DNA of 13,801 bases from a virus (Duplodnaviria > Heunggongvirae > Uroviricota > Caudoviricetes): IMG/VR virus record IMGVR_UViG_2534681759_000013. One strand, given 5' to 3'. Made by a program: the position numbers and the translations under genes. The notes under the pieces were generated by a model that had not been told where the DNA came from, ran no database searches, and saw nothing but the letters and a program-made list of their open reading frames with translations. Shown piece after piece: positions 1 through 13,801 of the stretch; positions within the stretch are counted from its first letter, which is position 1; the number at the start of each line of letters is the position of its first letter.

Positions 1-288
1 TTACCGCCGCAGCCGTTCCGGCTTCTTCCACTGGTAAGTATTTTTCGCGCTCTCCCTCCGTTGTTGAGAACGGCGACGGTATGCCAGCAACTCAAGGACT
101 CTTGTTCGTATGTTGCGCATATCCACGCCGTTAAGCTCAATACCGTCACGGAGCATCACCTCAGCCACCACACGCGCGTAATTTTCAGCGGTGACTGTAT
201 CCGGCTGCGCGGCCTGTTCGTCAGCCAACTGGCTGATTCCACCAGCACAGCGGATTAATCGCAGTATTTCAGATTCGGTCATTATCAT
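1..288 (-). CDS. hypothetical protein (95 aa), last gene of the left packaging module
   Basis: Complete ORF in the six-frame track (ATG at 288..286, TAA at 3..1). Its start overlaps the stop of the upstream Nu1-like gene (stop 287..285), indicating translational coupling. GC-rich backbone-type composition. No motif I can name. Confidence 0.45.
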   Translation of the reverse strand: MIMTESEILRLIRCAGGISQLADEQAAQPDTVTAENYARVVAEVMLRDGIELNGVDMRNIRTRVLELLAYRRRSQQRRESAKNTYQWKKPERLRR

Positions 289-770
289 GCCTGTTTTGCG
301 ACCTCATTCACTACGTCATTTTTTACCATCCGGCTGATAATCTGATTACGCAAATCGTCAATAATTGACTGCACTCTGTTTACTGCCATCGGTTTAAGCC
401 CGGCATCACGTGCCAGAATATTGGGGAGTTTTGCCAGTTCCTCGCTTACGATTTCCCCCCATATAGCCATCTCTTTTCGCACATCATCGGCGGGTATGAG
501 TTGCGCCGTTTCCTGTTCGAACCTGAGGCGCTCACGTTCGGACTGATACCAGGCCTTACGGTCATGTGGCTCCATTTCTTCCAGTGATGCCGGAACGGGA
601 AGATCAAGAAAACAGGTCAGAATGTCAGTCACCCGATAGAGTTTTAGCTTGTCATGCCCTCCGGCTGGCTGGATGTTTTTCAGCCTTGCCGCCGCAGTCT
701 GACGACATATTCCCGCTATCGCCGCCAGTTGATTAATGTTCAGCATCAGATTTTTCAGTTCTCGATCCAT
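285..770 (-). CDS. Nu1-like small terminase subunit / DNA-packaging protein (N-terminal HTH)
   Basis: The track ORF 285..857 starts at a TTG; the first ATG is residue 30 (MDRELKNL...), giving 285..770 by codon arithmetic. The N-terminus (LMLNINQLAAIAGICRQTAAARLKN...KLYRVTD) resembles the winged-HTH cosB-binding domain of lambda Nu1 as I remember it. The gene lies directly downstream, on the same strand, of a cos-like site, as in lambdoid phages. A satellite Rpp-like TerS-interacting protein cannot be excluded. Confidence 0.6.
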   Translation of the reverse strand: MDRELKNLMLNINQLAAIAGICRQTAAARLKNIQPAGGHDKLKLYRVTDILTCFLDLPVPASLEEMEPHDRKAWYQSERERLRFEQETAQLIPADDVRKEMAIWGEIVSEELAKLPNILARDAGLKPMAVNRVQSIIDDLRNQIISRMVKNDVVNEVAKQA

Positions 771-949
771 ACCCGCTCCAGAATGTTTTAAACATGCATC
801 TTGCGAACAACTTTCAGAAGAGGTCAAAAAATGCGCTATATGTTGAGCATAAAACAAGCAAAATTAACATGCTAAAAATAAAAATACTTAAAATTCAATA
901 CAATGGAAAGATGATGATGACGAATGAAAATGCAAAAACTAGCCTTTTT

Positions 950-969
950 CCGCGCCGCTCCCGCCCCGT
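950..969 (-). other. cosN-like cohesive-end site, left module (diverged copy)
   Basis: The minus strand reads CCACGGGGCGGGAGCGGCGCGGAAAAAGGC, resembling the lambda cosN region (..TTACGGGGCGGCGACCTCGCGGGTTTTCGC..) as recalled from memory. It sits between the capsid-gene terminator and the Nu1-like gene, and the same block recurs at 4583..4608. Confidence 0.4.
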
Positions 970-996
970 GGCAGGTCACTACACCGGGAGGACCCG

Positions 997-1020
997 CAAA
1001 AAAAGGCGGCTATCGCCGCC
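997..1020 (-). terminator. rho-independent terminator after the left capsid gene
   Basis: On the minus strand, GGCGGC-GATA-GCCGCC forms a perfect 6-bp GC stem followed by a T7 run, beginning 8 nt after the capsid stop codon (1030..1028). Confidence 0.55.
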
Positions 1021-1027
1021 CTTGTTG

Positions 1028-2647
1028 TCATGCTCCACTCGATTTCAGTAATCCGCGATAGTCGAGGGCCGCGACACCTGCATCTATGCGCACCTTCCAG
1101 GCGACGCCATCAACAGTAAATCCCTCCTGCTCCTCAAGATATGGCGTATCAATACCATCAAGATAAGCGACCTCTATCGTGTCCATCCCCTTCGCCGCTG
1201 CCACATACCACTCCTTGTTATTGGCTTTATCAAGACGCGGCTCGACGATAACCTCTGCCATATCTTTCACCACGTTAATGATGCCGGGGTTCTGATTGAT
1301 AGTGCCTCCACCATCAATCGGAAAGAGTGATGACGATGACAGAATGGCGCGATGTGCGGCAGACTCCAGCGCAGCAGGGACCAGAACAAAAGCGGGGGTA
1401 ATATTCAGGGAGTCGCCGTTGCCATCCTCCTGTAATCGCATCAGCTTACGGGCTTCGTTAAGCCCCTCCATGTCCATATCCTTCGCAATAAGATTTTTAT
1501 GATCGGCATGGAATAACGCTTTACCATCCGTAAATTTGCCGTTGCTGGTTAACAGAAGATAAACCAGATTACCTACTGTTCTGGCGGCCGCACGCCCCAT
1601 CGCCATGGGGATTGTAGTTAACTGGGTCAGGTCATCGTTGATAATGGCCTGACGGGTAACAGAAAAAATATTACCGTATGTGGCCAGCGCAATAGGTACA
1701 CCTTTATCGCTGGTGGTGATGTATTTATATTCCGCACCTTCCGGTACTTTATCCAGCTTTGAAAAACCATTCAGACCAACGCGCTTTGCTTCATGAAAGT
1801 TTGAAAGCGATCCGGTACACGTCCATTTCTGGAACGTTTCGCCGCTGTCCTGCCAGCCTTTCAGCACTGATTTTTCAGCACCACCAGCCAGAATATGAGA
1901 AAAATCGCTGCTGCTGTGTGTGAAAGCTGCATTAACGACCTGCGAGCGATTTAAAAAATTGCCAACACTGATACCACGATCAGTTAGTGATGCCTGGGCC
2001 ATTTCAAAAAGGCTCATCATCGCGTAAGGATTTCCCCGCTCTGGGCGTTCATACCCGAGACGAGAATAAAGCCCCTGACGAATTGCATCGCCTGTTATGT
2101 TCCCGTTACCGGCATAAATATGAGTCGGGATATTTTTATTGGATGGCGTGGACTCGCGCCCCAGCTCGTTCAACAACTTTTCACGGGCCATCTCCGGTGT
2201 ACATGATGCATCCTCCAGGCACGCCATTTTGATCCCGTCGTAACGACTGCCGAACAGGCTAAACACTTCACTTATTCCGTTGATGCGCTTCTGTTCATTA
2301 CCAGCAATATTTGCCGCTCCCTGTGGCGGTGTAATCATTCCTTTAATGGTTTCCGGCATATGTAAAAAATCTCCTGTGCGTTTCGATTCAATTCGCGCCA
2401 TTACTCTGACGGATGGCAACAATTCATCAGCAAAACCGTGCTTAAGGCATTCTTTCCCATCCATCCAGGTTTCATCCTCCAGCATGGCGGTAATTTCCTG
2501 TGCTGATTTGCCCGTTTTTCTGGCATAAGCAGGGATTAACACGGTTTCCACCTTATCCAGCAAATCAGCATAATCACGCATATCGCCAGCATTTCCGCCA
2601 GAGATCCCCCACGGTTTATGGATCATCATGCAATACATTGAAATCAT
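1028..2647 (-). CDS. major capsid protein (Mu gpT-like) paralog, 5'-truncated: retains only the distal part of the ClpP-like protease region
   Basis: 539-aa ORF, about 80% identical by eye to residues ~103-638 of the 638-aa protein at 4671..6587. It begins MISMYCMMIHKPWGISGG, so it keeps the ClpP-type His motif (MIHKP) but lacks the upstream ~100 codons that carry the Ser motif GLAASMA. Sequence upstream of 2647 is unrelated to the paralog. An internal ATG at 2638 has a better-spaced AGGA. Confidence 0.6.
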   Translation of the reverse strand: MISMYCMMIHKPWGISGGNAGDMRDYADLLDKVETVLIPAYARKTGKSAQEITAMLEDETWMDGKECLKHGFADELLPSVRVMARIESKRTGDFLHMPETIKGMITPPQGAANIAGNEQKRINGISEVFSLFGSRYDGIKMACLEDASCTPEMAREKLLNELGRESTPSNKNIPTHIYAGNGNITGDAIRQGLYSRLGYERPERGNPYAMMSLFEMAQASLTDRGISVGNFLNRSQVVNAAFTHSSSDFSHILAGGAEKSVLKGWQDSGETFQKWTCTGSLSNFHEAKRVGLNGFSKLDKVPEGAEYKYITTSDKGVPIALATYGNIFSVTRQAIINDDLTQLTTIPMAMGRAAARTVGNLVYLLLTSNGKFTDGKALFHADHKNLIAKDMDMEGLNEARKLMRLQEDGNGDSLNITPAFVLVPAALESAAHRAILSSSSLFPIDGGGTINQNPGIINVVKDMAEVIVEPRLDKANNKEWYVAAAKGMDTIEVAYLDGIDTPYLEEQEGFTVDGVAWKVRIDAGVAALDYRGLLKSSGA

Positions 2648-2696
2648 CCTACTGATAAATAAGATTAAAAATCACAATACAGATACGTTTGAGCTT

Positions 2697-2721
2697 CATT
2701 GCAATACGCATTGCAATACAC
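2697..2721. repeat. tandem ATTGCAAT palindromes (CATTGCAATACGCATTGCAATACAC); second copy at 12779..12801
   Basis: Two copies of the self-complementary octamer ATTGCAAT at 2698..2705 and 2710..2717, 12 bp apart. About 21 of 23 positions match the block immediately upstream of the integrase start codon. Confidence 0.5.
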
Positions 2722-2870
2722 GGTTGCTGGGTGATTTCAAAAGATGAATGCTGCGAAGGATGGAAATTTGGGAACTAGGTGGTGAATAGCACAACAAAAA
2801 ATCAGAATTCTACTAGCTTAAAATGATGCAAAAAGCATTCGTGGCATCGCAAGCGCTGTACAATTCGTTC

Positions 2871-2876
2871 TATAAT
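2871..2876 (+). promoter_or_regulatory. candidate -10 hexamer (TATAAT) for plus-strand transcription into cargo cassette 1
   Basis: Exact TATAAT in the 420-bp intergenic region, about 45 bp upstream of a strong-SD short ORF and about 195 bp upstream of the 3070 start. No convincing -35 identified. Confidence 0.25.
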
Positions 2877-3069
2877 GAAGAAAATTTCTAACAGACTTTA
2901 TCATTCAAAGGTGGAGGAGATGACAGCAATGCAACATGCATCACGCTCATACTTGAATTGTAAAGCTATCGTTAGAATCACAGCCTTTTTGTTCCGCTGA
3001 TCTAACGATAAAACTAGTGGTAAAAGGTATATTTTTTAATTTTTCAGACGCTGGCGCGGGGTAATTAAA

Positions 3070-3372
3070 ATGAAATTTGTAAATATACGGTCATCCGAGT
3101 TGCCTGAAATAGATACCTTTGTAAAAGAATGTATCAACCAAGGACAATGGACTCTTTTCAAGGCCGAGAAGGGTGCAGTTAATGATAATAAAGTTGCTTT
3201 TTTTCTAAAGGCTGGCAAAGATTTCTTTGCATTAAATAACAGAGGAAGTGTTATCTCTGTATTTCAATCATTAGATTATAATCTTGAAATGAATGAGGTA
3301 ATTCATTTTTCAGATATTCCTAAACCTGAATCGTTGAGCAATATTGCTAGCTTAGGATTTGCTAGAGTTTAA
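3070..3372 (+). CDS. hypothetical small protein (100 aa), first gene of AT-rich cargo cassette 1
   Basis: Track ORF with ATG at 3070 preceded by GGGG about 10 nt upstream. AT-rich codon usage (many K/N/I/F) distinct from the backbone. An 18-bp gap separates it from the next gene on the same strand. No recognisable motif. Confidence 0.55.
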   Translation: MKFVNIRSSELPEIDTFVKECINQGQWTLFKAEKGAVNDNKVAFFLKAGKDFFALNNRGSVISVFQSLDYNLEMNEVIHFSDIPKPESLSNIASLGFARV

Positions 3373-3390
3373 TATATAAGGATATGTACG

Positions 3391-4281
3391 ATGGGATTAA
3401 TATCTGGAAATACACATTGGGTATTATTTTTACCTTGTGAGCACCAACCAGAAGATCGCCATGTTCAAGATTTAGTTCATGGCGTCTTTTGCTTAGAATC
3501 CTCAGGTATACAGCCATCTAATATTAGCATATATATTGATGGCCAAAATAGAGCCAACTTTAATAAGTTAATTTCGATTGCAACCCAACATAATTATACT
3601 ATCAAGCCTACATCTGAATTTTTCACCGACTGCGATACAAATAGTTATGAAAATCTAGTTATGTTTGTGACCGGACACGGAAGTATGAATGGTTTGGACT
3701 CTGCGCCGATCATAACCCCATACCGTTTATTGGACAGGTTAAAAAACACTCCTGTTCTCAAGCAAGCAATCGTTTATCTTGGTCAATGTTTCGCTGGTGT
3801 TTTCAACTACTTACCTGCTGGGCAGCGTAAGAGAGGTGAAGATGCCGACCCCGATGTCATTCTTATCGGGGCTACGAGTCTTCATGAAAGTTTGAGTAAT
3901 CCAACAACGGAAAATATTAATGGTATAGATTTTCCTTGGGTTGCAAATCAATTTTTATATCATGTATTTAAGTGGATATCATCCCCGAATGATATCGATG
4001 GGGATGGAAAACATACAGTAATTGACTCTTATAAGTATGCTGGAATCTCATCAAACATGACCAATCGTAGAATGAAGATAGGTTCTTTTGTAGCTTCGGT
4101 AGACTTGCATGAGCAATGGAATACTGCAAAAAAAGATCATGAAGCTAACTTGGCTGATCCACAAAAACTACTCCGTTATAGAGCATTAGATCAGCAATAC
4201 TATGAAAAACTGAACATTAACTATATTCATCAAGAGTGCTGGATATTAAATTCTGTACCTGCACAATCTGTTGAATTCTAA
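3391..4281 (+). CDS. caspase-like (clan CD) cysteine peptidase-like protein with EF-hand-like Ca-binding loop
   Basis: 296 aa. A hydrophobic strand followed by His-Gly (LVMFVTGHGS, H96; codon 3676..3678) and a second hydrophobic strand followed by Cys (AIVYLGQCFAG, C133; codon 3787..3789) match the His/Cys dyad layout of caspase/metacaspase/legumain-type peptidases. DIDGDGKHTVID (residues 201-212, nt 3991..4026) fits the DxDxDGxhxxxD/E EF-hand loop pattern. AAGGA RBS 8-12 nt upstream of the ATG. Confidence 0.6.
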   Translation: MGLISGNTHWVLFLPCEHQPEDRHVQDLVHGVFCLESSGIQPSNISIYIDGQNRANFNKLISIATQHNYTIKPTSEFFTDCDTNSYENLVMFVTGHGSMNGLDSAPIITPYRLLDRLKNTPVLKQAIVYLGQCFAGVFNYLPAGQRKRGEDADPDVILIGATSLHESLSNPTTENINGIDFPWVANQFLYHVFKWISSPNDIDGDGKHTVIDSYKYAGISSNMTNRRMKIGSFVASVDLHEQWNTAKKDHEANLADPQKLLRYRALDQQYYEKLNINYIHQECWILNSVPAQSVEF

Positions 4282-4285
4282 TCCT

Positions 4286-4453
4286 TTACTTTTTTGAATA
4301 GATTGCTGCAAGTGCCGTTTTGAGGTCGTAATTTCGGCACTTGCAACTGCAACCAGAAATAGGGCGAACGTTTGACAAACGTTTAGCTATAGTCTGCCGA
4401 TGAAATCCAGTCACTTCCGCCAACTCACTTAAATTTAGAACTATCTTTTTCAT
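4286..4453 (-). CDS. short Nu1-like HTH DNA-binding protein (55 aa); apparently a truncated small-terminase gene
   Basis: Not in the ORF track (below its length cut-off); found by hand translation: MKKIVLNLSELAEVTGFHRQTIAKRLSNVRPISGCSCKCRNYDLKTALAAIYSKK. AAGGG SD 5-6 nt upstream of ATG 4453..4451, TAA at 4288..4286. It aligns across its whole length to the N-terminal HTH region of the 285..770 protein. It lies downstream of the cos-like site, and its stop is 4 bp from the convergent stop of the 3391..4281 gene. Confidence 0.5.
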   Translation of the reverse strand: MKKIVLNLSELAEVTGFHRQTIAKRLSNVRPISGCSCKCRNYDLKTALAAIYSKK

Positions 4454-4582
4454 CATAATTACCCTTCAGATGTCGAACAAATAACATACAATCCATCATC
4501 TTTTCCACTTTTATAAAGTTTTACCTAATAAAATTCAGTTAGTTAGCGAATGATGATGATGTCTATAAAATTCAAAAACTAG

Positions 4583-4608
4583 CCGTTTCCCGCGATGCCG
4601 CCGCCCCG
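4583..4608 (-). other. lambda-like cosN cohesive-end site of the satellite
   Basis: The minus strand reads CCTGCCACGGGGCGGCGGCATCGCGGGAAACGGCTAGTTTTTGAATTTTAT. Against lambda cos as recalled (CAGGTTACGGGGCGGCGACCTCGCGGGTTTTCGCTATTTATGAAAATTTT), the 11-mer ACGGGGCGGCG and the 7-mer TCGCGGG are identical and the flank is similar. It is followed about 140 bp later by the Nu1-like HTH gene on the same strand. Confidence 0.5.
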
Positions 4609-4634
4609 TGGCAGGCATCCCCGCCGGGAGTACC

Positions 4635-4662
4635 TTTTAAAAAAGGGCAGCATCTGCCGCCC
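4635..4662 (-). terminator. rho-independent terminator after the protease-capsid gene
   Basis: On the minus strand, GGGCGGC-AGAT-GCTGCCC forms a 7-bp stem (one G-U pair) followed by TTTTTT, 8 nt after the capsid stop (4673..4671). Homologous in position and form to 997..1020. Confidence 0.55.
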
Positions 4663-4670
4663 TCCTGTCG

Positions 4671-6587
4671 TCATGCCGCCCCGCTCGACTTCACCATGCC
4701 CCGATAATCCAGCGCCGCCACGCCAGCATCGATACGCACCTTCCATGCAATACCGTCCACAGTGAAGCCCTCCTGCTGTTCCAGATACGGCACGTCCATT
4801 CCATCCAGATATGCCACCTCGATAGTGTCGGTGCCTTGCGCTGCAGTGACGTACCACTCCTTGTTGTTGGCCTTGTCCAGTCGCGGCTCAACCACTACCT
4901 GCGCCATATCCTTCACGACGTTGATAATGCCTGGGTTCTGGTTCAGCATACCGTTCTGGTCTACCGGGAACAGCGAAGATGATGACAGCACAGCTCGATT
5001 GGCTGCGCCTTCCAGCGCGGCAGGTACAAGGATATAGGCTGGGATAACATTAATAGGATCGCCGTTCGCATCCTCCTGCAGACGCATAGCCTTACGGGCC
5101 TCATTGAGTCCGTCTGTATCCATCCCTTTAGCGATGAGGTTTTTATGGTCGGCGTGGAACAACGCTTTACCATCTGTGAATTTGCTGTTGGCGGTCAGTT
5201 GCAGGTAGACCAGATTGCCAACCGTTCGTGCGGCGGCACGCCCCATTGCCTGTGGAATGGTCGTGAGCTGGCTCAGGTCATCGTTGATAATGGCCTGGCG
5301 TGTAACAGAGAAGATGTTTCCATAGGTGGCCAGCGCGATCGGCACACCGCTGTCGCTGGTAGTGACATATTTGTATTCAGCACCTTCCGGGACTTTATCC
5401 AGTTCTGAAAAACCATTCAGACCGACACGTTTAGCCTCATGGAAATTCGACAGAGAACCGGTCTTTGTCCACTGCTGGAAAGTTTCCCCGCTGTTCTGCC
5501 AGCCAGTCAGCACCGACTTTTCAGCACCACCAGCCAGGATATGAGAGAAATCACTGGTGCTGTGCGTAAATGCCAGGTTCACGATCTGCGAGCGATTCCC
5601 GAAACCACTGACGCTGATACCACGATCCACCAGCGAAGCCTGCGCCATTTCAAACAGACTCATCATGGCGTAAGGGTTTCCCCTTTCGGCGCGTTCGTGA
5701 CCCAGACGGGCAAAAAGCCCCTGGCGGATAGCATCGCCGGTAATGTTGCCGTTACCTGCGTAAATGTGCGCGTTACTGGTTTTATCCGATGGGGTCGAGG
5801 TCTTACCCAGTGCCGTCAGCAGCATGTCTTTTGCTTTTTCAGGCGTGCAATCCACATCCTCCAGACACTGCATCTTGAGAGAATCATGCTTGCCGCCGAA
5901 CATGGCAAACAGATCCTTAATCTCGTTGATGCGGTTCTGTTCCGGTACAGCGCTACTGGTGGAACCTTTCGGGCTGGTGATCATCCCTTTAATTTCTTTT
6001 GGCATATGCTCAAAATCCTCAATTCGTTTTGACTCAATACAGGCCATTGCCCTGACGGCGGGTAACAATTCGTCAGCAAAACCCTGCGCTACACATTCGC
6101 GGCCATCCATCCATGTTTCATCCTCCAGCATTTCCGCCAGTGATTCGGCTGATTTACCCGTTTTGCGTGCATATGCCGGGATCAAGACACTTTCGACTTT
6201 ATCCAGAAGTTCGGCGTAGTCGCGCATGTCGTTGGCGTTCCCACCAGAGATTCCCCACGGTTTGTGAATCATCATGAGTGCGTTTTCGGGCATAACGATA
6301 CGGTCGCCAGCCATTGCAATAACTGACGCCATAGACGCGGCGAGACCGTCGATCTGCACTGTAATTTTTGCCGGGTGTTTATTCAGAAGGTTATAGATAG
6401 CGATGCCGTCAAAAACATCGCCACCGGGTGAATGAATGTGCAGGCTGATATGGGAGATATCGCCTAGGGCTTTCAGGTCTTCGGAGAACTGCTGCGCCGT
6501 AATACCCCAGCCGCCGATCTCTTCGTAGATGCTGATATTGGCGCTGGTGCCATCGCTGGCCGCTTTGATGGTGTACCAGCCTTTCAT
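4671..6587 (-). CDS. ClpP-like prohead protease fused to major capsid protein (Mu gpT-like)
   Basis: 638-aa ORF. The N-terminal ~180 aa carry ClpP/S49-type motifs (GLAASMASVIAMAGD with Ser85; MMIHKPWGISGG with His108). The C-terminal ~450 aa resemble Mu-like major head subunits as I recall them. The start ATG (6587..6585) overlaps the stop of the upstream small gene (ATGA). Confidence 0.85.
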   Translation of the reverse strand: MKGWYTIKAASDGTSANISIYEEIGGWGITAQQFSEDLKALGDISHISLHIHSPGGDVFDGIAIYNLLNKHPAKITVQIDGLAASMASVIAMAGDRIVMPENALMMIHKPWGISGGNANDMRDYAELLDKVESVLIPAYARKTGKSAESLAEMLEDETWMDGRECVAQGFADELLPAVRAMACIESKRIEDFEHMPKEIKGMITSPKGSTSSAVPEQNRINEIKDLFAMFGGKHDSLKMQCLEDVDCTPEKAKDMLLTALGKTSTPSDKTSNAHIYAGNGNITGDAIRQGLFARLGHERAERGNPYAMMSLFEMAQASLVDRGISVSGFGNRSQIVNLAFTHSTSDFSHILAGGAEKSVLTGWQNSGETFQQWTKTGSLSNFHEAKRVGLNGFSELDKVPEGAEYKYVTTSDSGVPIALATYGNIFSVTRQAIINDDLSQLTTIPQAMGRAAARTVGNLVYLQLTANSKFTDGKALFHADHKNLIAKGMDTDGLNEARKAMRLQEDANGDPINVIPAYILVPAALEGAANRAVLSSSSLFPVDQNGMLNQNPGIINVVKDMAQVVVEPRLDKANNKEWYVTAAQGTDTIEVAYLDGMDVPYLEQQEGFTVDGIAWKVRIDAGVAALDYRGMVKSSGAA

Positions 6588-6796
6588 TTTTCACCTTCCG
6601 TTACAGCGAAGCCATTTTCATCAAGCCATGCGTTGACTGCGTGCCGGACTACCTGTGCCACTCCGGGCAATGGCTGGACAGGAAGATTTTTCAGATGATC
6701 GTTGCGGTATTGCTTAAGGCGTACAACGGTTTGCGCGTCCAGATGTACGGAGCCGCCTTTAGTCTCGCCAGTGTTTAAATCGTTAATGTCACTCAT
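6584..6796 (-). CDS. hypothetical small protein (70 aa) translationally coupled to the protease-capsid gene
   Basis: The track ORF 6584..6844 starts at an alternative codon; the internal ATG at 6796 (MSDINDLNTGETKGG...) has AGAGGA 5 nt upstream. Its stop overlaps the capsid start. Confidence 0.5.
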   Translation of the reverse strand: MSDINDLNTGETKGGSVHLDAQTVVRLKQYRNDHLKNLPVQPLPGVAQVVRHAVNAWLDENGFAVTEGEK

Positions 6797-6941
6797 GATG
6801 TCCTCTACTGTATAAGTAAACAGGTTATGATGATTGATCACCAAAAGTGGTAAGTGAACAATTTTTTATCTGAAAAATAGATTTATGATGAAAAAAAATT
6901 TTTGTATGGTCTTAGATTGGAATAAACAGAAAGGTTAAAAA

Positions 6942-7655
6942 ATGGATCTCACTCGTAATGACGAACTCCTTTTGAATGATGCAGCTAGACGCTCATTTCG
7001 GGATATGGCAGACCAGGATTATCTCTCAGCTCGTCTGTGTTATAAGCACAAATTGAATTTTCAATTTTTATGGCTTTCGCAACAAGCCGTAGAGAAATAT
7101 ATTAAAGCGATTTTACTTTATAATAGAGTTCCAGTATTAAAATTAAATCACAATTTAAACAAAGGGCTGGCAAAGATTAAAGAAATCCCATATCTTGAAT
7201 TAGACCTAGATGTAAAAAGTGAGCGATTCATAGATTATCTCAATGAGCAGGGCCCAAATAGATACTTCCAAAACACTATGTATACCGAAGGCTTTGAAAT
7301 TATAACCTTGGATAGAACCATCTGGGAATTAAGAAGATACTGCAAGCCACTAAACTACTCAATTACTAACCCAAAAGGTGAAGTGATAGAAATGTTAGAA
7401 CATGAATTGAGTAGCATAAAAAATTCGAAGTCGAGGCCTTATCATACGTTCAAACTATTTGGAGGTTACTTAGAAAAAAGATTAAAAGATAATAAATTCA
7501 ATCAGGGCGACATACTTACATGGAAAAATTTATTTTTTGGAAGAAATAAAAAAAATGCAATTAGAATTGGAAGATCAATGCATGTAACTCATCCAACTCA
7601 TTATATGTACCCAAATGCAACGGAAATGCTCAGTCGTTTCTTTAAAATAAAATAA
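6942..7655 (+). CDS. hypothetical protein (237 aa), AT-rich cargo cassette 2; possible HEPN-like all-alpha N-terminus (weak)
   Basis: Track ORF with AAAGG RBS, strongly AT-rich, on the strand opposite the backbone and divergent from the capsid operon. The N-terminal segment (QQAVEKYIKAILLYNRVPVLKLNHNLNKG) has an R-x7-H arrangement loosely reminiscent of the HEPN Rx4-6H motif, but this is not convincing without a profile search. Confidence 0.55.
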   Translation: MDLTRNDELLLNDAARRSFRDMADQDYLSARLCYKHKLNFQFLWLSQQAVEKYIKAILLYNRVPVLKLNHNLNKGLAKIKEIPYLELDLDVKSERFIDYLNEQGPNRYFQNTMYTEGFEIITLDRTIWELRRYCKPLNYSITNPKGEVIEMLEHELSSIKNSKSRPYHTFKLFGGYLEKRLKDNKFNQGDILTWKNLFFGRNKKNAIRIGRSMHVTHPTHYMYPNATEMLSRFFKIK

Positions 7656-7755
7656 TTACATTCCAATTTTATTTACCGCTGTTAAATAAGTAAGGTATAT
7701 CTTTATTTATCGACATTGATAATCATGAAAGAGTATATCTTTTTTGCCGCACCTA

Positions 7756-7962
7756 GCGCATTTCTCACCGCACTTTCATCCCGCGCACTTAGGTGCGCAA
7801 TCCAACATGCACCGTACAGCCATTAAAACCAGTAATGGGGCGGGTTTGCAGGTGATTAATGCCAAACCGCGCACTTTCTTCGTATATACATGGAAAAAGT
7901 GCGGCAAGTGTATGTTTTATGAGCATTTCGCGCATCACGCGCATTTCTTGCCGCACTTTTCA
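7756..7962. repeat. iteron-like repeat cluster, putative satellite origin of replication
   Basis: GCGCATTTCTCACCGCACTTTCA (7756..7778) and GCGCATTTCTTGCCGCACTTTTCA (7939..7962) are near-identical direct repeats. Related copies include the palindrome GCGCACTTAGGTGCGC (7783..7798), CGCGCACTTTCTTCG (~7868..7882) and an inverted copy AAAAAGTGCGGCAAGTG (7895..7911). The cluster lies immediately 3' of the replication ATPase gene, where PICI-type origins usually sit. Confidence 0.4.
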
Positions 7963-7964
7963 GG

Positions 7965-9374
7965 TTAAATTATCGTGATATCTCCTGAATCATCGATAAA
8001 GATAATATTCTCCCTAACGAGTTTATCAAGCCAGCGTTTAAAACCTTTGCGGCCGTTCTCTCCAAACAGAGTGGTAATATCATCACGTATAACAGAGACA
8101 TTACACGGTTCACCTTTGGCTTTTCGGCTCCGGATTGACTGCCAGAGTGCAGCGTGGTTCCCAGTCAGGTGCTTGATATCAGCAAGTTCCGGATCAGGTT
8201 CTCGTGCCTCTCGTGGCAGGTCCTGCACCACCAGCGACGAAATAAGCTCACCATCACGATCTGTGAACAATTCGATCGGACGCAGATCGAATGCGGCCTG
8301 TTTCGGCTCCTCCGCATCTTTCATCTTCGTACAGGTCAGGATTATCGCCCCACCATCCCCCTCGCGCCGGACATTGAACTCTGCATCGAGCGCAGCCCTG
8401 AAAGCACTGGAACCACGTGCGCCTTTGGTATCGTCTTTTCCTGAATGATGCACCACCAGCAACGTGGCGCCAGTCTCACGCTTGATGACGTCGCAGCCTT
8501 CAATAAACGCCCCCATGTCACGAGCATCGTTTTCATCGTTACCACCAAAGCACCGCGCTAGAGTATCTATGACAATCAGGCGAACCGGCTGCCCCGTTTT
8601 GGACTTAACGTCACGCGCAGCTTTGATCATCTCCTGCATTTCCTCACGGCGAACCGGGAAAACCGGACGGTTTACCAGATACAGATTATTTAGTTTCACA
8701 CCATGTTTTTTCTCCCACGCCTTTATTCGCCGCGGAACGCCAATACCACCTTCACCTACTACGTACATCACAGCGCCGGCTGATACCGACTTCCCCGCCC
8801 ACTTCATCCCGGCTGCAACGTGACAAGCCCAGGACACCACCAGAAAACTTTTATACGAACCGCTCGGGCCGTAGATACTGCTCAGGCTGTTAGCGGGAAG
8901 ATAACTTTTTAACGTGTAATCCTGCTCCTGATCGTACCCATCAGAGCCCACGCTTAAAGGAAGGCTGTGCCGCAGTGACTCCTCTCGCACAGAGACTTCA
9001 ACCTGTTCACGCAGACGAGAAAGATATTCCCTCCAGTCCTCAGGCTCATGGTCGGGGATTCCTTTATACAATTTGGCATCCTGCACGCCAGCCAGCGCCA
9101 GCTTTTCAGCAATGTTATTAATCTGGATAGGCTTTATATTCCCTGCCAGGTAAATCCGCACGGCACGACGGCCATCATCCACAATGCGCAGGTTATCCAG
9201 CTCTGCCAGTTGTTTTGGCCCAAGGTAAACAGGAGGAGTGGTATCTTCGGCAATCTGTTTACCAAGCCCCTCTTCCCAACCCTTCGCATGGGCGTATGCT
9301 TCTGACCCGGCAAAAATAACTGCCTCCGTGAATTTTTCTTTTGGCAGGTGTTTCAGATTCGGTGCGTTTTTCAT
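7965..9374 (-). CDS. replication initiator / helicase-type RecA-fold P-loop ATPase (RepA/DnaB-like) with an unknown N-terminal domain
   Basis: 469-aa ORF. Walker A (IYGPSGSYKSF), Walker B-like (RLIVIDTLARCFGG) and a downstream LLVVHHSGKDDTKGARGSSAF segment are typical of AAA_25/RepA-like replicative ATPases found in PICI and P4-like primase-helicase genes. Its start overlaps the stop of the upstream gene. Confidence 0.85.
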   Translation of the reverse strand: MKNAPNLKHLPKEKFTEAVIFAGSEAYAHAKGWEEGLGKQIAEDTTPPVYLGPKQLAELDNLRIVDDGRRAVRIYLAGNIKPIQINNIAEKLALAGVQDAKLYKGIPDHEPEDWREYLSRLREQVEVSVREESLRHSLPLSVGSDGYDQEQDYTLKSYLPANSLSSIYGPSGSYKSFLVVSWACHVAAGMKWAGKSVSAGAVMYVVGEGGIGVPRRIKAWEKKHGVKLNNLYLVNRPVFPVRREEMQEMIKAARDVKSKTGQPVRLIVIDTLARCFGGNDENDARDMGAFIEGCDVIKRETGATLLVVHHSGKDDTKGARGSSAFRAALDAEFNVRREGDGGAIILTCTKMKDAEEPKQAAFDLRPIELFTDRDGELISSLVVQDLPREAREPDPELADIKHLTGNHAALWQSIRSRKAKGEPCNVSVIRDDITTLFGENGRKGFKRWLDKLVRENIIFIDDSGDITII

Positions 9375-9694
9375 TTCAGCCCCTTATCCCATCCGTCAGA
9401 TCCAACACTCAGCGGCAGAGAAGAGCGCAGAGCAGCGATTTTTTTACGCACGTTTTCTTTTACGGTCTCCTGCCACTCCCTGCTTTCCTCAGGGAGATAA
9501 ATAAATTCTTTTCGGAACCGGTACTCAGAAAAAATACACTCATGTGAATACCCATCCCGGACATACGTAATACGGCTATCCGTTATGCATGTGACAGTAA
9601 TTTTTTCTCCGCGAGAATCTTTCCAGCGACTGTTAAGCTCGATTTTTGGTTGAGCGATGCCCTCAGGCTGAACCTGATTGAATTTTTTAATCAT
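9371..9694 (-). CDS. hypothetical protein (107 aa); C-terminus shares the SLPLSVGSDG linker motif with the replication ATPase
   Basis: Track ORF with AAGGA SD 8 nt upstream of ATG 9694. The stop is coupled to the ATPase start. The C-terminal ~30 aa are similar to residues ~110-145 of the 7965..9374 protein. Confidence 0.55.
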   Translation of the reverse strand: MIKKFNQVQPEGIAQPKIELNSRWKDSRGEKITVTCITDSRITYVRDGYSHECIFSEYRFRKEFIYLPEESREWQETVKENVRKKIAALRSSLPLSVGSDGWDKGLK

Positions 9695-9698
9695 GAAT

Positions 9699-9878
9699 TT
9701 ATTCCTTGTCGGTAGCCGTTAAACCGTATGCTTCAGCAGCCTGACGAACTGCCTGGATAAAACCTTCCGGTGTGGCCACGATTTCGTCCGGACGAAGGCG
9801 GCGCTCTGTAACCTGACCGTTTTTAACCGTCACCAGTACGCGGATCTCGTAATCAGCAGGTAAGGCGGAGTTATCCAT
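9699..9878 (-). CDS. hypothetical small protein (59 aa)
   Basis: Internal ATG ([15 protein letters not shown]...) of track ORF 9699..10004. It overlaps the stop of the upstream gene (caTGGAtaa arrangement) and ends 4 nt before the next start, so it is tightly packed in the operon. Confidence 0.4.
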
Positions 9879-10158
9879 GGCGCACCTCCATTGGCACAGC
9901 TTCATTGCTGTAAGGATCGCTACCCAAGATGCTCCATAGGGTGCGATGTTCAGGATCCATAAACGACACTGAGAGCGGGCTTTCTGTTCGGATTTTGGCG
10001 GCAAAGGTCAAGTCCCAGCCGCAGAACTTTGCACGGGCAGTATCTTCAGTGTCTGCAATGGTGCGCAGAACTATCGGGAGACAAGAGTGACCTCGCGGCG
10101 TGCCAAGGAATAGCCATGTAAATTTTGGGCGAGTTTGGGTATGCTGTTGATCAGCCAT
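9871..10158 (-). CDS. hypothetical protein (95 aa), first gene of the replication operon
   Basis: Internal ATG at 10158 ([13 protein letters not shown]...) of track ORF 9871..10215, with GAGGT SD about 7 nt upstream. Divergent from the RHH gene across an operator-like intergenic region. Confidence 0.45.
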
Positions 10159-10251
10159 AACTGTTACCTCAACTAACGGTTTGTGGTTAGACGTCCCGTG
10201 AGTGGTTCCAAGCACTTCCGGGACGTTGCTTTTTTCACGTCAAGCGTGATA

Positions 10252-10289
10252 ACGTACGTAATAGCAACATCCTATGAGGTTACGTACGT
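10252..10289. promoter_or_regulatory. paired ACGTACGT palindromes, candidate operator in the divergent promoter region
   Basis: The palindromic octamer ACGTACGT occurs at 10252..10259 and 10282..10289 (30 bp centre to centre), between the divergently oriented 10158 start (minus) and 10292 start (plus). The second copy sits just upstream of the RHH gene ATG. Confidence 0.45.
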
Positions 10290-10291
10290 AC

Positions 10292-10483
10292 ATGTCAACA
10301 ATAAAACGAGATAAAACACCCAAAGGAGAGGGCTTGTCTCCGACATTCCAAATCCGAATAAGTCCTGAATTGCGCCAGCAGATGAATGAAGCTGCTGAGC
10401 GTGAGGGAGTAAGTCTTGGTAATTGGCTTAAAGGTCTGGCTAGAAATGAACTTATTAAGCAAGGAATTGAACCTAAAGGTTAG
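10292..10483 (+). CDS. ribbon-helix-helix (Arc/CopG-like) DNA-binding protein, candidate repressor
   Basis: Second ATG of track ORF 10274..10483 (the first ATG lies inside the operator palindrome). 63 aa with a beta-strand then two helices (TFQIRISPEL / RQQMNEAAEREG / VSLGNWLKGLARNEL), typical of RHH regulators. GAGGT about 11 nt upstream. Confidence 0.6.
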   Translation: MSTIKRDKTPKGEGLSPTFQIRISPELRQQMNEAAEREGVSLGNWLKGLARNELIKQGIEPKG

Positions 10484-10536
10484 TTTTCACAAGCACTCTT
10501 TGATTTTTTCAGTAAAAATTAAATTAAGGAAATTCT

Positions 10537-11247
10537 ATGGATGATTTATATACACCATCTGAATATTTTATGTTCGTAGAGAAATTTGATCATTACTTCC
10601 CACGAAAAAGCCCTTTTAACTCATTATTATTCGAGTTCAATTATAGATTAGAAGATATAGTTGTTTTTCATCGCTTTGTTATCAACACCTATTCAAAAAA
10701 TAAAAAAGCAATTGATGTACAATATAATAAATTTAATTTTCTTGATGATAAACAAAAAAATTCCCTTTCTGATGACGAGTATGAAGCGTATCAACTCAGG
10801 TTTGCAAGGCATATGGAATACATTAACCATCAAACTGATTTGAATGAAAAAGCGTCTTACATTGCTAACGATAGTGTCGTTATAAACTTATGGGCCATGA
10901 ATGAACAATATATGACTAGAGGATTGGCCAACCTAATATCTCAAAAAGAAAATAAAAATTTAAATGAAGTTAAAACGCCTTACAAATGGGATACAATCAA
11001 AAGTAAATTCCTGTCATATGGAATCAACTTTGAGACATTGCCATCTTATGATGACATTAATGAATGTAGAGTACTGAATAATAAAATAAAACATCTGAAC
11101 ATAGTAGATTCTGGTTTAGAAGTTTTCCCTCCCTTCAAAGGTAAGCTTAACGAATCACTTACTGGCATGGCCTTTCCTCTTCAAAAATATATCATAGGCT
11201 CTCATCACTTTATAGGAATGCTATTAGAAGAGTGCTCATTAAAATAA
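10537..11247 (+). CDS. hypothetical protein (236 aa), AT-rich cargo cassette 3, downstream of the RHH gene
   Basis: Track ORF with AAGGAA RBS 6-12 nt upstream, strongly AT-rich, 53 bp after the RHH stop on the same strand. No recognisable catalytic motif. Confidence 0.6.
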   Translation: MDDLYTPSEYFMFVEKFDHYFPRKSPFNSLLFEFNYRLEDIVVFHRFVINTYSKNKKAIDVQYNKFNFLDDKQKNSLSDDEYEAYQLRFARHMEYINHQTDLNEKASYIANDSVVINLWAMNEQYMTRGLANLISQKENKNLNEVKTPYKWDTIKSKFLSYGINFETLPSYDDINECRVLNNKIKHLNIVDSGLEVFPPFKGKLNESLTGMAFPLQKYIIGSHHFIGMLLEECSLK

Positions 11248-11251
11248 ACGC

Positions 11252-11288
11252 ATGGCAACGTATAATTTATCGCTTAATACGTTGCCAT
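11252..11288. terminator. hairpin between convergent genes (candidate bidirectional terminator)
   Basis: Perfect 11-bp inverted repeat ATGGCAACGTA / TACGTTGCCAT (11252..11262 and 11278..11288) with a 15-nt loop. It is 5 nt after the 10537..11247 stop and 6 nt after the alpA stop, with U-rich tracts on both transcribed strands. Confidence 0.5.
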
Positions 11289-11293
11289 ATCTC

Positions 11294-11530
11294 TCATTTA
11301 TTTTTATCGAACCAATCTCCTTTAATCCAAGCTTGCATCTCTGAGAGCCGGTAAGCAACTGCTGACGGCCCAATTTTGATTCGCTTAGGAAATTTTCCTT
11401 CCTGTTCCATGCGCCAGCGCGTTGAGTTAGACAACGTAGTCATAGCCCGGCATTCAGGTTCGCGAATCATTCTGTCAAGGTCAGGCATGTACTGGAGATC
11501 TTCTTTTTTCACAACGGATAACATAGCCAT
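11294..11530 (-). CDS. alpA: AlpA-family phage regulatory protein (excisionase-like HTH)
   Basis: The track ORF starts at GTG 11539; the first ATG is at 11530 (MAMLSVVKKE...) with AAGGAG 8 nt upstream. The segment AMTTLSNSTRWRMEQEGKFPKRIKIGPSAVAYRLSEMQAWI matches the AlpA/Xis-like HTH pattern. It lies immediately downstream of the integrase gene. Confidence 0.7.
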   Translation of the reverse strand: MAMLSVVKKEDLQYMPDLDRMIREPECRAMTTLSNSTRWRMEQEGKFPKRIKIGPSAVAYRLSEMQAWIKGDWFDKNK

Positions 11531-11531
11531 A

Positions 11532-12767
11532 TCAGGCACTCCTTTTCTTAATTACTTTTACTGTATTTTCTTCACCCACCAGCCCATCAAGGTAGTCAAC
11601 CCATCGGTCCAGTGCTTCTTGCTTTTGAGGGATATACTTGCTGCGGTTATAGACTCCGGCCACGCCCTTTATGGTATGCCCCAGCAGCTGCTCTACGACC
11701 ATAAAATCAACGCCCATATCGTTAAGGCTTGTCGAGAACGTTCGTCTCAAATCATGTAATGACCAGCGTTTTTCATGTTTCAGAGAGATAAAGTTTGTGC
11801 ATCCCATCGTACTGACGGTTGAATCAGATTTCAGTTCGCCAAATATGTAGCCTCTCCTTTTAGTCTCTTCGTGCAGGTTTACGATCCACTGGCGCATTTT
11901 TTGAGGAACGGGGCGAATAATTTCTTCGCCGTTTTTACTGTGCTCTTTAGGTACTGTCCAAATCCACTTATCGAAATCCCACTCATCCCATGTAGATAAA
12001 CGCGCCTCACTCAGCCTGCAGCCAAACACGAGACACAAAATCGCCATCCTTTTTTTGTAATTCATTACACGGGTTTTGCCTTTACCATGAAAGTACACTC
12101 CCCACAGATCGGCGACGTAGCTTTCCTCAAGTAGCCGCTCTCTCTTGTTCTGATACTTACCGATATCACCAGGGCTCAAATCATCAAGCACATTGCACCG
12201 CACATACTGGCGCACCCGGCAGTATTTGAAGATCTGCTTTAACTCAATCAGCATTGCAGCAGACTGAACCGGCGCGATTTTCTTTATGCGGTCGAAGCAC
12301 TTGATCCAGTCTGACAGACCGCATTTCTCGACAGGAAACCCGCCGATGTAGGGAAAAATGTATCTCTCATAACGGCGATAGAGCCGTAAAGTCTCTTTGC
12401 GCTTTTCCCTGGCATAGTTATCAAACCAGTAATCGATAGCGTTCTTCACAGTTACTGGAGTGAACAGGTTCTCTTTGGTGAGTTTGTTCTCTATTCGTGG
12501 GTCGAGTCCCTGAGATAGCCATGCCCGGCACTCGTCCCTTTTCTCTCTGGCCTGTTTAAGGGTCATATCTGGATACTTGCCTAACGTCATCCAGACGGGG
12601 GCGCTTTGTCGGCCGGAATGTCTGAAGAAATACACAAAGCTCACAGTGCCACTAACGCTCACTCTGACAGACAGTCCACGACCATCTGCCACCATCTTTT
12701 GACGCGGCTGGGGTTTACCATGTAAGGCCTTTAACGCCTTGTCGCTTAACTTGTTCTCGCCCGCCAT
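11532..12767 (-). CDS. int: tyrosine recombinase / phage integrase, P4-type
   Basis: 411-aa ORF with an N-terminal arm-binding-type region (GRGLSVRVSVSGTVSFVYFFR) and C-terminal catalytic signatures (HDLRRTFSTSL ... LLGHT ... YNRSKY). GAGG SD 5-8 nt upstream of the ATG. Confidence 0.9.
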   Translation of the reverse strand: MAGENKLSDKALKALHGKPQPRQKMVADGRGLSVRVSVSGTVSFVYFFRHSGRQSAPVWMTLGKYPDMTLKQAREKRDECRAWLSQGLDPRIENKLTKENLFTPVTVKNAIDYWFDNYAREKRKETLRLYRRYERYIFPYIGGFPVEKCGLSDWIKCFDRIKKIAPVQSAAMLIELKQIFKYCRVRQYVRCNVLDDLSPGDIGKYQNKRERLLEESYVADLWGVYFHGKGKTRVMNYKKRMAILCLVFGCRLSEARLSTWDEWDFDKWIWTVPKEHSKNGEEIIRPVPQKMRQWIVNLHEETKRRGYIFGELKSDSTVSTMGCTNFISLKHEKRWSLHDLRRTFSTSLNDMGVDFMVVEQLLGHTIKGVAGVYNRSKYIPQKQEALDRWVDYLDGLVGEENTVKVIKKRSA

Positions 12768-12778
12768 AAAACCTCATT

Positions 12779-12801
12779 CTGCAATACACATTGCAATACA
12801 C
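12779..12801. repeat. second copy of the ATTGCAAT tandem-palindrome block (CTGCAATACACATTGCAATACAC), 12-34 bp upstream of the integrase ATG
   Basis: Near-identical to 2699..2721. It contains the palindromic octamer ATTGCAAT at 12790..12797 and a degenerate copy 12 bp upstream. Confidence 0.5.
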
Positions 12802-12944
12802 ACTTAACTGCAACGCCGAAAAACAGTAGAAAAGCAATGCAAACAACACCTCTTCTTTCGTAAGCGCATCATTTAAACCGTCTTTCGCCTCCCTTTCCTG
12901 TTTCCGATACTAATGTCCATTTTCGCAGTAAAAGGACATTTAAG

Positions 12945-13595
12945 ATGAATGCACGAAAGGCGGTACTGGCAGATAACCCGGAATTGATCCTGCGTGTGCT
13001 ACAGCTGAGATTTGACGAGTCACTGTCGTACCCGCGCATTTCTGCGCAGACCGGTGTCAGCAAAACCGCCATTTTTTCTCTGGTGAGGCGATTTCACCAG
13101 ATATTCGCTGACTGGCCTCTTTCCGGTGAATATTCCTGCATGCAACTGGCCCGGGCTCTTTTCCCTGGGCGATATCCTTCAGCCCCGACAGTGACTCAGC
13201 CTGTGAAAACAGAGAAAATCCGCCGGAACCGATTTTCACCGGAGTTTAAATGGAGGCTTGTTCAGCAAACTCTTTTACCCGGTGCCTGTGTCGCACAAAT
13301 AGCTCGCGAGAACGGAATCAACGATAACCTGCTCTTTAACTGGCGGCATCTCTGGCGTAACGGCGGCCTGCAGCCGCCCGGCGAACATGAAACATCGCTA
13401 CTTCCCGTGACGTTAACGCCGGAGCCGGATAATAAAATCCCGGCACCAGTGCAGATACCTGAACAGATAAATACACTGCCAGACAGTCTGTGCTGCGAGC
13501 TGGTTCTGCCGGCCGGAACTCTCAGGCTGAAAGGTGAACTGACACCGGCGTTATTACAGACACTTATCCGCGAAATGAAAGGGAGCAGCCACTGA
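12945..13595 (+). CDS. tnpA: IS66-family accessory protein TnpA (orf1), with an N-terminal extension or alternative start
   Basis: The central segment RRNRFSPEFKWRLVQQTLLPGACVAQIARENGINDNLLFNWRHLWRNG matches the conserved IS66 Orf1 HTH core as I remember it. The 216-aa ORF is longer than I would expect for this family, so the true start may be internal. Confidence 0.7.
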   Translation: MNARKAVLADNPELILRVLQLRFDESLSYPRISAQTGVSKTAIFSLVRRFHQIFADWPLSGEYSCMQLARALFPGRYPSAPTVTQPVKTEKIRRNRFSPEFKWRLVQQTLLPGACVAQIARENGINDNLLFNWRHLWRNGGLQPPGEHETSLLPVTLTPEPDNKIPAPVQIPEQINTLPDSLCCELVLPAGTLRLKGELTPALLQTLIREMKGSSH

Positions 13596-13801
13596 TGATA
13601 TCTCTCCCTGCCGGTTCGCGTATCTGGCTGGTTGCCGGTATCACCGATATGCGAAATGGCTTTAACGGCCTGGCCTCAAAAGTTCAGAACGTCCTGAAGG
13701 ATGACCCGTTCTCCGGGCATCTGTTCATCTTCCGCGGACGCCGGGGTGACCAGATAAAAGTGCTGTGGGCTGACAGTGACGGACTGTGCCTCTTCACCAA
13801 A
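13595..13801 (+). CDS. tnpB: IS66-family TnpB (orf2), 3'-partial
   Basis: Hand translation from ATG 13595 gives MISLPAGSRIWLVAGITDMRNGFNGLASKVQNVLKDDPFSGHLFIFRGRRGDQIKVLWADSDGLCLFTK, the conserved IS66 Orf2 N-terminus as I recall it. It is absent from the track because it runs off the window without a stop. Confidence 0.8.
   Translation, partial: MISLPAGSRIWLVAGITDMRNGFNGLASKVQNVLKDDPFSGHLFIFRGRRGDQIKVLWADSDGLCLFTK

Follow-up and report, generated by a model that had tools for sequence, protein, structure and literature searches.

Caspase-fold proteases have recently come to light as bacterial immune effectors, in gasdermin operons, among CHAT proteases and in type IV Thoeris. To our knowledge, all of those described so far fall within the C14/CHAT part of the clan, and in each a signalling or sensor domain drives the protease. 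In contrast, the family described here is compact, lies on the legumain (C13) side, occurs in many phyla, has no sensor domain and comes with a small partner that is strictly conserved. Its carriers include satellites, prophages and genomic islands, and it has no name in the libraries that we searched. We encountered it as a two-gene cassette in a 13,801-nucleotide (nt) stretch of DNA (virus record IMGVR_UViG_2534681759_000013, Caudoviricetes; referred to below as ‘the window’), where the gene for a 100-amino-acid (aa) protein, the partner, precedes that for a 296-aa cysteine protease (Table 1). A previous reading of this DNA made without database searches (the sequence-only reading) had singled out the pair as a possible defence module. 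Judged by comparative sequence analysis, the two genes of the cassette form a self-contained operon that moves horizontally, and we consider the pair a credible candidate for a protease-based phage-defence or addiction module.

The sequence-only reading had seen in the large protein a clan-CD-like arrangement of His and Cys, with H96 and C133 separated by 37 residues, and this proved to be invariant across the family. We found 207 homologues among 5.8 billion proteins; nearly all have 290–305 aa and share about 50% identity across the Gamma- and Betaproteobacteria. Apart from a few labelled ‘Peptidase C13’ or ‘caspase family’, almost none has a name. In 1.84 billion cluster representatives, searched exhaustively with HMMER, the family has only 270 members at E ≤ 0.001 and 234 at E ≤ 1e-10. 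We aligned 35 close homologues (alignment A1) and about 38–39 more remote members (alignment A5). In A1, W10, R23, D27, H96-G97 and G131-Q132-C133 are invariant and H24 is kept in at least 90%, while near the C-terminus Q281, E282, W284, L286, N287, P290 and Q292 are also invariant. Among the remote members H96, G97 and C133 are still invariant, together with G136, D27 and W183, and at least 90% keep R23, Q132, S167, S169, N186, the DxDGD residues, D212, Q281 and W284.

These residues fall into a recognizable fold. The protein has the alpha/beta/alpha sandwich of caspases, legumains, gingipains and separase that characterizes clan CD, and the clan's dyad, a conserved His-Gly ahead of a conserved Cys, is found as H96-G97 and C133. 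When the A1 profile was compared with the PDB, the only matches were legumains, plant asparaginyl endopeptidases and peptide asparaginyl ligases, with a best E of 0.001. In the HMMER alignment the stretch from W10 to R23-H24 coincides with W...R-H(Q-A-D) of legumain. No aligned locus lacks R23, and some lineages have F in place of H24; we take the two to be the counterparts of the S1-pocket pair R44/H45 of human legumain. The comparison figures for the 296-aa protein are 19.8 for human legumain, 19.6 for OaAEP1, 17.7 for metacaspase-9, 17.3 for GPI8, about 15 for caspases and 15.1 for SAVED-CHAT, with gingipains, clostripain and separase lower. The 296-aa protein itself has no Pfam match at E ≤ 1, including PF01650 (Peptidase_C13), and scans of PADLOC, NCBIfam and PHROGs also gave none. 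PF01650 was matched by 4 of 39 remote members and by one close homologue (P0104), with a best E of 8.2e-6; none of the 39 remote members matched another peptidase family. Because the window protein lacks a Pfam match and only a few members reach PF01650, we would place the family as a sister group of C13 and not as a scored member. By profile and structure comparison, then, the large protein is a catalytically competent-looking clan CD protease, as had been supposed, and its closest family appears to be C13 (legumain) and not the C14 caspases or CHAT.

All family members are single-domain proteins of about 270–350 aa, and none has a fused sensor domain. We found no fusion of the large to the small protein in the representative library, where the longest members have only an N-terminal extension of 40–47 residues. 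Since the family is this compact and has no fused sensor, regulation must come in trans.

The partner has a small, beta-rich core without a recognizable fold. It has no relative in Pfam, NCBIfam, PADLOC or the PDB, and its sole library match is PHROG 30138, which is of unknown function. Its tail is predicted to be disordered. In five diverse proteobacterial sequences (alignment A2) the tail motif FSD(I/V)xKPxSLSN has F80, S81, D82, K85, P86, S88, L89, S90 and N91 invariant. The motif is kept across Proteobacteria and in one spirochaete and is degenerate in remoter lineages, where an Asn near the C-terminus is nevertheless usually retained. Past the Asn the homologues continue for 1–13 residues that show no conservation. 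C13 enzymes cleave after Asn. A conserved, disordered tail that bears an Asn hints that the partner is a substrate or pseudosubstrate of the protease, and the combination of an invariant motif ending in Asn with the cleavage preference of C13 enzymes supports engagement of the tail by the protease. In Pseudomonas reidholzensis (L018:9659-9990) the partner gene is frameshifted in a T-run just before the tail motif, and the motif FSDIPRPQSLSN is still readable in the next frame; the frameshift either is an error of sequencing or arose very recently.

The same tail could be read as a processing site. The C13-like enzyme would then cut the partner after Asn91 and remove the variable end, and the cut would either activate the partner as an effector or transfer it to another protein, in the manner of GPI8 and the plant asparaginyl ligases. 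We think this reading improbable. A bolder version, to which we give slightly less credit still, is by analogy with those enzymes: the protease would attach the partner, through an acyl-enzyme intermediate, to a phage or host protein, as a ubiquitin-independent tagging defence that is possibly Ca2+-gated at the acidic loop described next.

That loop lies in the second half of the protease. In an AlphaFold 2 (AF2) model, residues 198–212 form a DxDxDG loop in a helix-loop-helix of EF-hand- or dockerin-like geometry. D201, D203, G204, D205 and D212 are invariant in A1 and, over the family, invariant or at least 90% conserved. Ca2+ binding by the loop is plausible; Ca2+ control of the protease is conjectural.

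Both genes of the cassette are evidently real, and we can set chance open reading frames (ORFs) aside because the large protein has 207 homologues and the upstream partner is conserved with it. The description of two co-oriented plus-strand genes, AT-rich and 18 bp apart, agrees with the ORF positions and the base composition: the two ORFs share a frame, and the guanine-plus-cytosine (GC) content of the cassette is 36%, against 53% for the capsid gene, 51% for rep and 48% for int of the surrounding satellite. The window is E. coli chromosomal DNA: its positions 1–12859 are 99.95–100% identical to CP024240, CP127262 and other records, in which both cassette proteins are annotated as hypothetical.

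The pairing of the two genes was surveyed in further loci (28 from a one-genome-per-species scan, plus exact-protein look-ups), whose six-frame ORFs were searched with hidden Markov models for the large and the small protein. Wherever the upstream DNA is intact, the partner gene immediately precedes the protease gene on the same strand, separated from it by up to about 40 bp or overlapping it by as much as 10 nt. The pairing spans at least seven phyla and includes Proteobacteria, Spirochaetes, Clostridia, Melainabacteria and Cyanobacteria, Myxococcota, Bdellovibrio and gut Alphaproteobacteria. Four loci have no upstream partner: two are at contig ends, one is a decayed pseudogene (L025) and one is a copy truncated by an insertion sequence (IS; L038). 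The expectation that the two genes would be syntenic in other genomes thus held in every locus where it could be assessed. From this conservation we conclude that the two genes form one unit in which the partner is obligate, and they are probably translationally coupled. When cassette DNA was compared among the loci that carry the pair, nothing matched beyond the two coding regions; therefore the conserved mobile unit appears to be just the gene pair. The leader of the window copy shows no conservation at other loci that have the pair, promoter-like and terminator-like matches were no more numerous than in shuffled sequence, and no Rfam match was found in the window.

Twice in E. coli the protease gene has been inactivated while the partner gene stayed intact. 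In strain TW10828 there is a 1-bp frameshift (L001:12792-13544), and in F11 an IS1A insertion accompanied by loss of the rest of the satellite (L048:6792-7762). Such knock-outs are as expected if the protease is a costly effector. They also suit a toxin-antitoxin-like addiction module, in which the protease would be the toxin and the upstream small protein its labile inhibitor, and the pair would stabilize satellites, prophages and islands without being phage-specific. The pair does resemble type II toxin-antitoxin systems: a small gene precedes that of a larger enzyme, the two are closely spaced or overlap, the pair is spread over many unrelated mobile elements, and the enzyme gene is often inactivated; the Leclercia copy, moreover, adjoins a SymE toxin gene. 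We nonetheless regard addiction as unlikely, though the most serious of the competing explanations. Neither protein resembles a known toxin-antitoxin family in Pfam, NCBIfam or PADLOC, we know of no legumain-like protease toxin family, and there is none in the Pfam, NCBIfam and PADLOC libraries searched. Truncated variants of the small protein (P0315-P0317) occur in E. coli and Klebsiella records, which would not sit easily with an essential inhibitor if their protease genes are intact. In addition, toxin-antitoxin and abortive-infection roles are not mutually exclusive.

The account that we tentatively favour, with somewhat less than even confidence in the composite, is a protease effector that is controlled by its partner and causes abortive infection. 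The two proteins would form a complex, and the disordered tail of the partner would lie as a substrate or pseudosubstrate in the cleft of the protease, N91 occupying S1, and would keep the enzyme in check. Infection would release it: either a phage product would bind the folded core of the partner, or a change in ions would be sensed at the DxDxDG loop. The freed or activated protease would then cleave host or phage proteins and abort the infection, so that the host population of the element would be protected. Of this scheme, the fold, catalytic residues, strict pairing and mobile carriage come from the comparisons above; that the proteins bind each other, that the tail is engaged, what triggers release, what is cleaved and that the result is defence are our inferences.

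Several observations weigh against this account. PADLOC-DB v2.0.0 gave zero families at E ≤ 1 for either protein. In the remotest lineages, such as the Melainabacteria, the tail Asn is not always retained, and its presence shows no clean co-variation with R23/H24 of the protease and the neighbouring conserved residues. The acidic S1 residue of legumain beside a Trp is not conserved in the family, although this comes from a weak, manual comparison with the legumain sequence. The loop of the protease had been said to fit the EF-hand calcium-binding pattern; a conserved DxDxDG loop in a predicted helix-loop-helix is indeed there, but it fails the strict pattern (PROSITE PS00018) at positions 8 and 13. 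Full PS00018 matches were found in none of 35 close homologues and in 2 of 39 remote members, and the 296-aa protein has no Pfam EF-hand match. Finally, many loci lie amid housekeeping genes with no recognizable defence neighbour, both proteins are absent from 50,697 INPHARED phage records (tblastn), and the protease, the only one of the two searched there, is absent from 72,556 PLSDB plasmid records (tblastn).

The genomic contexts of the pair are mixed. In Klebsiella it stands, as in the window, at the end of a satellite, here a capsid-forming one, with fis and terL on either side. It lies near int of a lambdoid prophage in Serratia, beside int of a P2-like element in Vibrio, in an integrative island in Burkholderia and beside an integrase remnant in Bordetella. 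In P. aeruginosa it sits between type I restriction-modification (R-M)/Abi_2 genes and Drt3a/Drt3b. The P. reidholzensis copy adjoins a TOTE AEP-helicase and the Treponema copy a MuF_C polyvalent protein, while Klebsiella, Leclercia and Xanthomonas carry small islets amid housekeeping genes. Among the reverse-transcriptase neighbours flagged by PADLOC, the third was not placed by phmmer. The earlier idea that homologous pairs might sit in defence islands or satellite hotspots is matched by the satellites, prophages, islands and the R-M/DRT3 and TOTE neighbourhoods and not by the many housekeeping loci, and as an argument for a defence role these contexts are only suggestive.

Cargo positions in mobile elements hold both defence and anti-defence genes. 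The positions inside prophages and satellites would thus also suit a counter-defence or inter-element weapon, in which the protease degrades proteins of host immunity or of rival phages and satellites. We find this improbable: the pair also forms an islet by itself in the chromosome and is found within a chromosomal defence island, its absence from the sequenced phage records above is awkward for a phage weapon, and the obligate small partner would be left unexplained.

Table 1. Features of the cassette and of the satellite that carries it; positions are those of the window.
Feature	Positions	Strand	Remarks
Cassette-bearing satellite, ~10 kb	about 2619-12801	-	From annotation of identical E. 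coli records
Leader	2619-3069	.	AT-rich, non-coding; between the int-distal end of the satellite and the cassette; holds 22-nt repeat 2700-2721
Small partner gene	3070-3372	+	100 aa, WP_000673879.1; beta-rich core (residues 1-80) and disordered C-terminal tail
Tail motif FSDIPKPESLSN	3307-3342	+	Residues 80-91; N91 is the proposed P1
Variable C-terminal extension IASLGFARV	3343-3369	+	Follows the conserved Asn; variable among homologues
Large protease gene	3391-4281	+	296 aa, WP_000522986.1; legumain-like, clan CD, C13-like cysteine protease
R23-H24 codons	3457-3462	+	Aligned (HMMER) to Arg-His of the legumain RHQAD motif
Catalytic His96 codon (TGHG; VTGHGS)	3676-3678	+	Aligned to legumain catalytic His-Gly
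Catalytic Cys133 codon (LGQCxAG; here LGQCFAG)	3787-3789	+	Aligned to legumain catalytic Cys
DxDxDG loop DIDGDGKHTVID	3991-4026	+	Residues 201-212, between predicted helices 187-197 and 210-252 (AF2 model)
C-terminal motif IHQECWILNSVPAQS	4225-4269	+	Conserved; after long helical hairpin (residues 210-278)
DUF1441/terS-like N-terminal helix-turn-helix fragment	4286-4456	-	56 aa; starts 4 bp after the cassette, convergent
Satellite ClpP-capsid fusion	4671-6587		
Satellite RepA-type helicase	7965-9374		
Satellite alpA-like gene	11294-11539		
Satellite int	11532-12767		

In the window the cassette forms the int-distal terminus of a satellite whose further genes include an Icd-like gene, DUF4222 and the DUF1441 fragment. 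This fragment matches Pfam DUF1441 over positions 1–46 of 147 only (E 8.8e-7, under the gathering score), matches PHROG 141 ‘terminase small subunit’ at E 1.8e-10, and is 44% identical to residues 34–67 of a full, 190-aa DUF1441 protein encoded at 285–857. Given the partial DUF1441 match, the PHROG 141 match and the alignment to the full copy, the label ‘truncated terS-like helix-turn-helix’ is a fair one. The sequence-only reading had placed such a gene 4 bp from the cassette, correctly, and had given its length as 55 aa, one residue short of the ORF call. Its further claim, that the cassette is cargo at the satellite end beside this truncated gene, is borne out by these matches and by other copies of the satellite: chromosomes of Enterobacteriaceae carry the same satellite with an identical cassette at several other sites, it is also present within a lambdoid prophage, and identity of the window to those other integration sites always starts at 2618/2619.

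This position invites the idea that the pair serves the satellite itself, exploiting the helper phage by processing capsid or scaffold proteins, for example, and replacing lost packaging genes. In two satellite types it does adjoin the capsid module and the truncated terS-like gene. We nevertheless consider this very unlikely, as the pair is also found in elements and loci without capsid genes (Pseudomonas, Burkholderia, Leclercia, Treponema and others), the cassette is transcribed convergently to the morphogenesis operon, and its GC content, which resembles that of two other cargo islands in the same satellite, marks it as foreign cargo.

The first of these islands (33% GC; 6942-7655, plus strand) lies between the replication and capsid modules and encodes a 237-aa HEPN-domain protein (Pfam E 1.6e-5). 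This protein has no PADLOC match and could be a single-gene RNase-type defence or toxin. The second (30% GC) has a HicB-family antitoxin-like gene of 69 aa (10274-10483, plus strand) followed by a gene for a 236-aa protein (10537-11247, plus strand), which had no match in Pfam, NCBIfam, PADLOC or PHROGs and is an orphan partner in the place where one would look for a HicA toxin.

Near both ends of the satellite there is a 22-nt direct repeat, TGCAATAC(G/A)CATTGCAATACAC, at 2700-2721 and, beside int, at 12780-12801. It is an internal duplication of TGCAATAC, which is also present at the left junction (2629-2636), and it may be att-related. The left flank of the window (1031-2629, minus strand) encodes residues 105–637 of the ClpP-capsid fusion of an older satellite, with the junction at about 2619-2630, so that the cassette satellite sits within the ClpP-capsid fusion gene of that older satellite. 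The N-terminal part of the interrupted gene is found past int in CP127262 and CP024240 (residues 1–128 in CP127262; L001:22277-22660). In another genome (L063:3590-5239) the same satellite lies against the ClpP-capsid gene, 57% identical, of a lambdoid prophage, and that gene too breaks off at residue 105, which suggests that the satellite integrase targets a conserved site in the prohead-protease/capsid genes of phages and rival satellites.

At its right end the window diverges from CP024240/CP127262 at 12860; the novel part begins ...GTAAGCGCATC, runs to 13801 and encodes an IS66-family orfA-like protein at 12945-13595. Our reading of 12860-13801 is a strain-specific IS insertion that would have replaced or displaced the N-terminal ClpP fragment of the other genomes. 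Just downstream of each ClpP-capsid gene there is also a GC-rich, non-coding element of 80 nt (927-1006 and 4567-4646). The two window copies are 78% identical, a third copy in a neighbouring satellite (L055:25178-25257) is 95% identical. A terminator-like hairpin and a T-run close the element, which may act as a terminator or else as a packaging (cos/pac) signal.

How, then, does the pair compare with described systems? The sequence-only reading did not recognize it as a named system. PADLOC, Pfam, NCBIfam and the full-text literature agree: in papers on legumain/C13 proteases in phage defence, on clan CD and on defence by phage-inducible chromosomal islands (PICIs) we found no description of the family. 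Among bacterial conflict systems, the gasdermin operons come close in layout, with a protease gene beside a protein that may be activated by loss of a short C-terminal peptide, carriage on mobile elements and defence contexts. As a candidate identity for the cassette, a gasdermin-protease system was rejected: the partner is a soluble, beta-rich protein of 100 aa with no gasdermin similarity, and the PADLOC gasdermin models gave no match. The likeness to CHAT and caspase-like effectors (type III CRISPR Craspase, CBASS/SAVED-CHAT) and to type IV Thoeris is limited to the concept of an immune effector. Type IV Thoeris combines TIR with a caspase-like protein (bioRxiv 10.1101/2024.10.24.620036). 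An effector of the Thoeris or CHAT type was likewise rejected, as the protease bears no CHAT signature, there is no fused SAVED, CARF or TPR sensor, the partner has no TIR signature, and no cyclase, TIR or CRISPR genes are adjacent or conserved as neighbours. The tail-assembly-inhibition (Tai) systems of PICIs, which have no protease component, were ruled out as well (PMC11364771).

On the protease side, the metacaspases (C14B) are Ca2+-dependent members of clan CD. No member of the family matches Pfam C14, and we know of no metacaspase described with an acidic DxDxDG loop in a helix-loop-helix. Legumains, asparaginyl endopeptidases and peptide asparaginyl ligases (C13) have a fold and catalytic layout like those of the window protease, at 12–16% identity. 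The window protease differs from legumain in being cytoplasmic, with no signal peptide evident in the sequence, in having a helical hairpin and a QExWILN tail in place of an LSAM-type prodomain, and in its DxDxDG loop and constant pairing with a small partner gene. GPI8/PIG-K, also of family C13, again shares the fold and catalytic layout; it works as part of a five-subunit membrane complex, whereas the window pair has no such partners, and transamidation by the pair, suggested by this analogy, is purely speculative. Should the enzyme ligate and not only cleave, it would be a potentially useful bacterial asparaginyl ligase. If the pair does act in defence or abortive infection, it would add a new protease lineage to bacterial immunity, together with a new logic of regulation in which a partner with an Asn-bearing tail acts in trans, and would extend the evolutionary link of prokaryotic conflict systems to the eukaryotic legumain and GPI8 enzymes.

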